64,000 nt of DNA from NCBI RefSeq assembly GCF_045037415.1, contig NZ_CP173438.1, one strand, 5' to 3'. The position numbers are program-made. Source of the stretch: Escherichia coli. Its GTDB lineage: Bacteria; Pseudomonadota; Gammaproteobacteria; Enterobacterales; Enterobacteriaceae. Shown here piece after piece: positions 45,401-48,400 of the stretch (positions within the stretch are counted from its first letter, which is position 1; each line of letters begins with the position of its first letter).

Positions 45401-48400
45401 CGCTTGTCATCCTTCAATCTTGAAAGAGGCCGTAACGCTGGCTTCTCCAGCGGCACGTATTGTATTGATGGGCTTCTCCAGTGAACCGTCTGAAGTGATT
45501 CAGCAAGGAATTACCGGAAAAGAACTCTCTATTTTCTCTTCACGCTTAAATGCAAATAAATTCCCGGTCGTTATCGACTGGTTAAGTAAAGGGTTAATTA
45601 AACCAGAAAAACTAATTACCCATACGTTTGATTTCCAGCATGTTGCGGATGCCATTAGTTTATTTGAACAGGATCAAAAACATTGCTGCAAAGTCTTACT
45701 CACTTTTTCTGAATAATACCAATAACGGCGAATAAGTAGTACGCATCTTACCTCTTTTTTAGAGATAACCATTATGACAATAGAAAAACACGAAAGAAGC
45801 ACTAAGGATTTGGTGAAAGCAGCAGTATCGGGATGGCTGGGCACTGCGCTTGAATTTATGGATTTCCAGTTATATTCGCTCGGCGCAGCGTTAGTGTTTC
45901 ATGAAATATTTTTTCCTGAATCATCAACGGCAATGGCGTTAATTCTGGCAATGGGAACCTATGGTGCAGGTTATGTGGCACGTATTGTCGGAGCATTTAT
46001 TTTCGGCAAAATGGGCGACAGAATAGGGCGTAAAAAAGTGCTCTTTATTACCATCACCATGATGGGGATCTGTACCACCTTAATTGGTGTGTTACCGACT
46101 TATGCACAAATTGGTGTTTTTGCCCCCATCTTGCTGGTGACGCTGCGTATTATTCAGGGGTTGGGTGCAGGTGCGGAAATTTCCGGTGCCGGTACGATGC
46201 TGGCGGAATATGCGCCAAAAGGTAAGCGCGGAATTATCTCCTCATTTGTGGCTATGGGAACTAACTGCGGAACCTTGAGCGCAACGGCAATCTGGGCCTT
46301 TATGTTCTTCATTCTCAGTAAAGAGGAACTGCTGGCGTGGGGATGGCGTATACCTTTCCTGGCGAGCGTTGTCGTGATGGTCTTTGCTATCTGGTTGCGT
46401 ATGAATCTGAAAGAAAGCCCGGTCTTTGAGAAGGTTAACGACAGCAACCAACCGACAGCAAAACCTGCACCTGCTGGTAGCATGTTCCAGAGCAAATCCT
46501 TCTGGCTGGCAACAGGGCTGCGTTTTGGTCAGGCTGGTAACTCAGGTTTAATTCAGACTTTCCTTGCAGGCTATTTAGTGCAGACGTTATTGTTTAACAA
46601 AGCAATTCCAACAGATGCATTGATGATCAGTTCGATTCTCGGCTTTATGACCATTCCGTTCCTTGGTTGGTTATCCGATAAAATTGGTCGCCGGATCCCG
46701 TATATTATTATGAATACCTCTGCGATTGTGCTGGCATGGCCAATGCTTTCTATCATCGTAGATAAAAGCTATGCCCCGAGCACCATTATGGTTGCACTGA
46801 TTGTGATTCATAACTGTGCGGTGCTTGGATTATTTGCTCTGGAAAACATTACCATGGCAGAAATGTTCGGCTGTAAAAACCGCTTTACCCGAATGGCTAT
46901 TTCTAAAGAAATTGGTGGTCTTATCGCTTCCGGTTTTGGTCCTATCCTGGCGGGGATTTTCTGCACCATGACGGAATCCTGGTATCCGATCGCCATTATG
47001 ATCATGGCATATTCTGTGATTGGTTTAATCTCTGCGCTGAAAATGCCAGAAGTGAAAGACCGTGATTTAAGTGCGCTGCAAGACGCCGCAGAAGATCAAC
47101 CACATGTTGTAAGAGCTGCGCAACCGTCCAGAAGTCTGTAAATCCTCAATCCCTTCTCTTACCGGAGAGGGGATTTTTATTCATATAAAAAAACATGTAG
47201 CTTGCTATATTTAATTTTAAGGAATTGTTATGGGAAATCATTTGTTATCAGCAAAAGCGACGCTCCCTGTTTATGATCGTAATAACCTGGCCCCAAGAAT
47301 TGTTCATTTAGGCTTTGGTGCATTTCACCGTGCGCATCAGGGCGTGTATGCCGATATTCTTGCTACGGAACATTTCAGTGACTGGGGATATTATGAGGTC
47401 AACTTAATCGGCGGCGAACAGCAAATTGCCGATTTACAACAGCAAGATAATCTTTATACCGTTGCGGAAATGTCGGCTGATGCGTGGACGGCTCGCGTCG
47501 TTGGCGTCGTTAAAAAAGCCTTACACGTACAAATAGACGGCTTAGAAACCGTGTTGGCTGCGATGTGTGAACCGCAAATCGCGATTGTCTCTCTGACAAT
47601 CACCGAAAAAGGGTATTTCCACTCTCCGGCGACCGGACAGTTAATGCTCGATCACCCGATGGTCGTTGCCGACGTGCAAAATCCCCACCAGCCGAAAACT
47701 GCAACAGGGGTGATTGTTGAGGCGCTGGCTCGCCGTAAAGCGGCAGGACTTCCCGCATTTACCGTCATGTCATGTGACAACATGCCAGAAAACGGTCATG
47801 TTATGCGTGACGTTGTCACTTCCTATGCGCAAGCCATTGATGTAAAACTGGCACAATGGATCGAAGATAACGTGACTTTCCCATCAACAATGGTGGACCG
47901 TATTGTGCCCGCAGTGACAGAGGATACGCTGGCGAAAATCGAACAACTTACCGGTGTGCGCGATCCGGCAGGCGTTGCCTGTGAACCTTTCCGCCAGTGG
48001 GTAATAGAAGATAACTTTGTTGCCGGACGTCCGGAATGGGAAAAAGCGGGAGTCGAACTGGTTAGTGATGTGCTGCCTTATGAAGAGATGAAGTTGCGCA
48101 TGCTCAATGGCAGTCATTCATTCCTGGCGTATCTGGGCTATCTTGCCGGATATCAGCACATTAATGACTGCATGGAGGATGAACATTATCGTCATGCGGC
48201 GTATACCTTAATGTTGCAGGAACAAGCGCCGACGCTGAAAGTGCAGGGCGTTGATTTGCAAGATTACGCTAACCGATTAATTGAACGCTATAGCAACCCG
48301 GCGTTACGTCATCGAACCTGGCAGATTGCGATGGATGGCAGCCAGAAATTGCCACAGCGGATGTTGGATTCTGTTCGCTGGCATCTGGCGCATGACAGCA

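Follow-up and report, generated by a model that had tools for sequence, protein, structure and literature searches.

A vacant attachment site for Qin and related lambdoid prophages inside an intact ydfJ gene of Escherichia coli

When rspB is followed directly by a complete ydfJ in an Escherichia coli chromosome, does the junction mark a vacant insertion site of the Qin prophage, and where within it does the attachment site lie? The ydfJ locus is established as a well-known lambdoid prophage hotspot that bears type III effector genes in STEC. In K-12, integration of the Qin prophage into the 5' end of ydfJ removes 28 N-terminal codons together with the promoter (PMC6379469), and a further report describes ydfJ as a common lambdoid attB with an att sequence of 18 or 19 bp (PMC8112680). 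A first-pass annotation of the window, by which we mean the whole 64,000-nucleotide stretch of E. coli DNA analysed here, proposed that Qin is absent, that the rspB-ydfJ junction, for which it gave the coordinates of the spacer, looks like an empty Qin insertion site, and that the background is not that of K-12. Our analysis indicates that the window almost certainly carries an unoccupied attB of Qin and related lambdoid prophages, located inside the 5' end of ydfJ, so that the placement of attB moves from the intergenic spacer into the coding sequence.

The features of the locus are collected in Table 1. Upstream of the junction the window contains ynfC, speG, ynfB, ynfA and rspA, and downstream ydfI, ydfZ, rspR (ydfH), ydfG and dcp; the same flanking genes surround the Qin locus of K-12 MG1655. 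The coordinates of rspA were taken from the annotation of strain JJ1887 (25972-27186 of the JJ1887 stretch, plus an offset of 17499), and a profile search matched its product to NF011654 at 819 bits and to NF043051 (ManD) at 743 bits. The longest open reading frame for rspB in the ORF list runs from 44673 to 45716 on the plus strand, but the gene really begins with the ATG at 44697, because the NF007489 profile aligns only from residue 9 of that frame; the JJ1887 annotation places the start at the same position. As this frame ends at 45716 and the next one begins at 45774, the gap between them is exactly 57 bp. The succession of rspB and, after 57 bp, a full 455-aa MFS transporter gene that the first-pass annotation described therefore stands on the ORF list, the sequence and the profile matches alike, and since the adjacency of the two genes is deterministic, chance is not at issue. 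In RefSeq genomes that are 100% identical in this region, the first gene is annotated as rspB and the second, without a pseudogene flag, as 'MHS family MFS transporter YdfJ'.

Table 1. Coordinates of genes and sites around the rspB-ydfJ junction (positions in the window).
Feature	Position	Strand	Description
rspA	43471..44685	+	Opens the unit; 'starvation-sensing protein RspA' of the D-mannonate dehydratase family
rspB	44697..45716	+	Zn-dependent oxidoreductase; NF007489 equivalog, 692.5 bits; annotated as rspB in identical genomes
rspB-ydfJ spacer	45717..45773	+	57 bp; ordinary intercistronic spacer, not a phage attachment site
ydfJ	45774..47141	+	Intact; predicted 455-aa MHS-family MFS transporter; WP_000151247.1 in JJ1887, not a pseudogene
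Unoccupied attB (very probable) of Qin and ydfJ-locus lambdoid prophages	45851..45869	.	TGAATTTATGGATTTCCAG; imperfect 19-bp site, YdfJ codons E27-Q32
Intrinsic-terminator-like hairpin	47148..47175	+	Stem of 12 bp with a T run after it, directly beyond the ydfJ stop codon
ydfI	47230..48690	+	Mannitol dehydrogenase / fructuronate reductase family; intact; NF011611, 649 bits; annotated
rspR (ydfH)	49106..49792	-	GntR-family regulator of the locus; GntR-family profile matches; annotated as rspR in JJ1887

The product of ydfJ is predicted to be a transporter on the basis of its family matches. It scores 462.9 bits against the TIGR00883 metabolite/H+ symporter profile (cut-off 443.45 bits), with residues 23-418 aligned to profile positions 1-400, and Pfam MFS_1 aligns from residue 21. 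The gene is probably co-transcribed with rspA and rspB, and prophage integration would then separate it from the rspAB promoter. The hairpin immediately downstream of the gene folds at -17.3 kcal/mol (z = -3.85), and none of 200 shuffled sequences folded as well. A hidden regulatory element in the 57-bp spacer was also considered and was ruled out: within 45717-45773 the scan returned no promoter-like or terminator-like site, the predicted folding was no better than that of shuffled sequence (z = 0.13), and there was no match to an Rfam family. The spacer is retained beside rspB in K-12, where it differs by one SNP.

For comparison with K-12 we used the MG1655 RefSeq chromosome (NZ_CM185172.1), in which the rspB and ydfJ flanks are parted by 20,469 bp of Qin, measured core to core. 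The order following rspB is an integrase pseudogene (intQ), an IS2 fragment, ydfD, dicB, ydfC/B/A, dicA and dicC, continuing with relB, relE, hokD, cspF, cspB, the lysis genes, cspI, nohA, tfaQ, pinQ and ydfK before ydfJ is reached; Rfam places the DicF RNA inside the same element. The first-pass annotation had described an element of about 20 kb between rspB and ydfJ that carries dicB, dicF, relBE and cspB/F/I and leaves ydfJ truncated, and the MG1655 record, together with the Rfam match for DicF, agrees with it on each of these points. The K-12 gene is flagged 'incomplete; missing N-terminus' and is represented by a 427-aa 3' fragment that starts at Met29, two codons after an in-frame TGA, and this start fits the published loss of 28 N-terminal codons (PMC6379469). 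The fragment corresponds to residues 29-455 of the protein encoded in the window, with 2 amino-acid differences in 427. K-12 also retains a 31-codon 5' remnant of ydfJ after rspB, which reads into a phage-encoded stop, whereas the window encodes all 455 residues in one frame. Since the Pfam and TIGR00883 alignments begin at residues 21 and 23, the K-12 break at residue 28/29 falls within the conserved domain. A sensitive blastn search of the 64-kb window with the whole 20.5-kb K-12 Qin found no remnant of the prophage, and DicF was not found in the window by Rfam.

Alignment of the window to the K-12 rspB and ydfJ flanks, which the first-pass annotation had suggested as a check, showed that both flanks match and that the junction lies at a short core at 45856-45866. 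Homology with the left K-12 flank extends through 45866 and homology with the right flank begins at 45856; thus Qin has the 11-bp sequence TTATGGATTTC at each of its ends, and the window has a single copy. In a three-way comparison of attB, attL and attR, this perfect 11-bp core, a single copy in the window, was found at both attL and attR of two independent prophages, K-12 Qin and a prophage of an O103:H2 strain. The K-12 locus accordingly shares the core with the window, but has the prophage and two cores where the window has no prophage and one core. The core is embedded in the longer, imperfect site listed in Table 1, where phage and chromosome differ on either side: on the left by a 1-nt indel (TGAATT in the phage, TGAATTT in the chromosome) and on the right by one mismatch (CAAG in the phage, CCAG in the chromosome). 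In the window, the core is flanked by the chromosomal form in either direction, with TGAATTT to its left and CCAG to its right. The whole site encodes E27-F28-M29-D30-F31-Q32 of YdfJ, and the reading frame, as translated, is unbroken across the core. Its length is in agreement with the 18-19 bp given for ydfJ-integrating prophages (PMC8112680). The proposal of an empty Qin insertion site is thus upheld as far as the contiguous junction and the lack of Qin DNA in the window are concerned, but its position has to be corrected, as attB lies at 45851-45869, 78-96 bp within ydfJ, and not in the 57-bp spacer at 45717-45773.

Other prophages use this site as well. The O103:H2 strain FWSEC0007 carries a lambdoid prophage of ~33.5 kb with several IS insertions at the same locus, and its junctions are those of Qin. 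Beside attL this prophage encodes an intact 431-aa integrase of the tyrosine type (Arm-DNA-bind_2 and Phage_integrase domains), with a DUF1233 excisionase adjoining attL; K-12 has the intQ pseudogene where the O103:H2 prophage has its integrase. The elements PP3 of strain SE11 (PP_SE11-3), Sp11-Sp12 of O157 Sakai and Qin share a common locus (PMC2608844), so that the site empty in the window is occupied in FWSEC0007, Sakai and SE11 alike. The ydfJ prophages of STEC, EPEC and commensal strains bear an integrase, an excisionase, dicB, paa and an nleG7 pseudogene, all of which are lacking from the window. An empty ydfJ has been described before, in the O104:H4 strain C227-11, where, according to Nakamura et al. 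2021 (PMC8112680), it served as the attB reference for the 'PPydfJ' prophages. C227-11 resembles the window in having no phage in ydfJ and, compared by length, in its att sequence (18-19 bp there, 19 bp here), and differs in being O104:H4 as opposed to the ST131-type background of the window.

To determine how common the empty site is, a query of 201 bp with the core at its midpoint was compared with 5426 complete E. coli genomes. The site was uninterrupted in 2008 of them (37%); a longer query of 2.7 kb gave 2010. Nearly all of the remaining genomes returned two half-matches, which break at window position 45851 and at 45866-45869, and in every split genome sampled 45851 is the first position of the right piece and either 45866 or 45869 the last position of the left one. 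Breakpoints confined to one position in this manner point to site-specific and not random insertion. Derivatives of K-12 and of B (BL21), O157 and ATCC 25922 are among the occupied genomes. An earlier survey put occupancy of the locus at 48% among 638 strains (PMC6379469), and the present count supplies a current figure of 63% interrupted among the 5426 complete genomes. The empty ydfJ site is therefore a common strain polymorphism that is already described, since published work covers the locus, the loss of 28 codons and the variation in occupancy (PMC6379469, PMC8112680, PMC2608844).

The strain itself appears to belong to an ST131-type background. Positions 17500-64000 of the window (46,501 bp) match the chromosome of E. 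coli JJ1887, an ST131 strain, with 0 mismatches, and many human clinical isolates match positions 1-20000 and 30000-54999 at 100% identity. Identity with K-12 across the flanks is ~97.5-98%. The non-K-12 origin that the first-pass annotation had read from the junction is confirmed by this comparison, in which 46.5 kb are identical to JJ1887 as against ~97.5% identity to K-12. The window also contains fumC.

Several further differences were observed along the window and in its relatives. The gene ynfF (36487-38056), a paralogue of ynfE that encodes a selenate/tellurate reductase subunit, is a pseudogene with two internal deletions relative to O103:H2, one of 274 bp and one of 580 bp, whose joints lie at 36568/36569 and 37342/37343, and is annotated as 'frameshifted' in the identical JJ1887 sequence. 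The genes ydeJ and ydeI are deleted at 52934-52970, where 37 bp stand in place of 1015 bp in K-12 and short remnants are annotated, and yneK is deleted at 60307-60315, where 9 bp replace 1012 bp of K-12 and JJ1887 has an annotated remnant of 102 bp. The sole match in the window at the Rfam gathering score is the Hfq-binding sRNA STnc560 (54218-54431, plus strand, 281.9 bits), directly 3' of dgcZ and opposite mgtT/mgtS. Strain FWSEC0007 has a 6.3-kb island between eamA and marB (26026-32314 of its stretch; joint at window 56915/56957) that is present in neither the window nor K-12 and that encodes a GntR regulator, PTS IIB/IIC/IIA components, a carbohydrate porin and a 6-phospho-beta-glucosidase. 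Some ST131-type genomes that are otherwise 100% identical to positions 30000-54999 carry an extra IS1 (AREA_494, in the rspA-ydfI stretch) or an IS150, and the window has neither insertion.

A contiguous rspB-ydfJ junction could be accounted for in other ways, and these carry very different weight. Repeats abound in prophage regions and at times lead to misassembly, so that a prophage might have been dropped or collapsed during assembly. The uninterrupted junction recurs, however, in 2008 independently finished genomes, the 46.5-kb match is to a complete JJ1887 chromosome, and the ydfJ frame continues intact through the core, and we consider an artefact of this kind extremely improbable. The further idea, raised by the first-pass annotation against itself, that its account of the K-12 map is wrong and that K-12 has the same contiguous junction, can be dismissed outright: MG1655 has Qin between its two cores and a ydfJ without its N-terminus, and BW25113 and another K-12 record are likewise split at the site.

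The history of the empty state deserves closer consideration. The site may once have been occupied in this lineage, with precise excision by integrase and excisionase restoring attB and ydfJ, in which case the empty state would be secondary and not ancestral. Occupancy is indeed patchy across E. coli, as the occupied K-12 and B derivatives, O157 and ATCC 25922 illustrate; intact pairs of integrase and excisionase exist at the site and make excision mechanistically possible, and a crossover within the 11-bp core would leave the same sequence as is seen in the window. Against this stand the lack of any scar, the chromosomal variants on both sides of the core, which have the look of a site never occupied, and the finding that, among the matches listed, every genome 100% identical to the query has an uninterrupted site. 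The flanking variants would in themselves fit either a never-occupied or a precisely excised history, and on the whole we regard past occupancy followed by excision as unlikely.

The manner in which this site would be used can be outlined from the prophages found elsewhere. Phages of the ydfJ group carry genes for an excisionase and for a tyrosine integrase of the lambda type that includes an arm-binding domain, and they recombine their attP with the 11-bp core. Integration would part codons 1-31 of ydfJ, along with rspA and rspB upstream, from the rest of ydfJ. In the absence of integration, rspA, rspB and ydfJ would form one unit, with no promoter or terminator signal in the spacer and a strong hairpin following ydfJ. 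As no prophage is integrated in the window, ydfJ is full-length and rspA-rspB-ydfJ is an uninterrupted same-strand unit.

The genes rspA, rspB, ydfJ and ydfI may together constitute a sugar-acid catabolic unit of the L-gulonate type, as suggested by gene context, family assignments and earlier work. In 2014, Wichelecki and colleagues are said to have described in Biochemistry a unit of the rspA/rspB/ydfJ/ydfI type for L-gulonate catabolism in a B2 strain. In FWSEC0007, ydfI (15361-16821 of its stretch), which lies downstream of the prophage-split ydfJ, has an internal stop in its annotation, which could represent decay of the unit after disruption of ydfJ. By contrast, the 3' fragment of ydfJ in K-12, with its 2 differing residues of 427, shows no decay.

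The value of these observations lies mainly in annotation: the pseudogene status of ydfJ in K-12 should not be projected onto strains such as this one. Because the locus is a prophage hotspot, the empty site is also a potential landing pad. It is conceivable, although we hold the idea only tentatively and think it rather less probable than its opposite, that prophage occupancy of ydfJ acts as a population-wide on/off polymorphism for a unit of sugar-acid uptake and catabolism (rspA-rspB-ydfJ, with ydfI), in which the 37% of E. coli whose site is empty, this strain among them, would be able to use a substrate such as L-gulonate while K-12 and the other 63% would not, and in which downstream decay would follow disruption.
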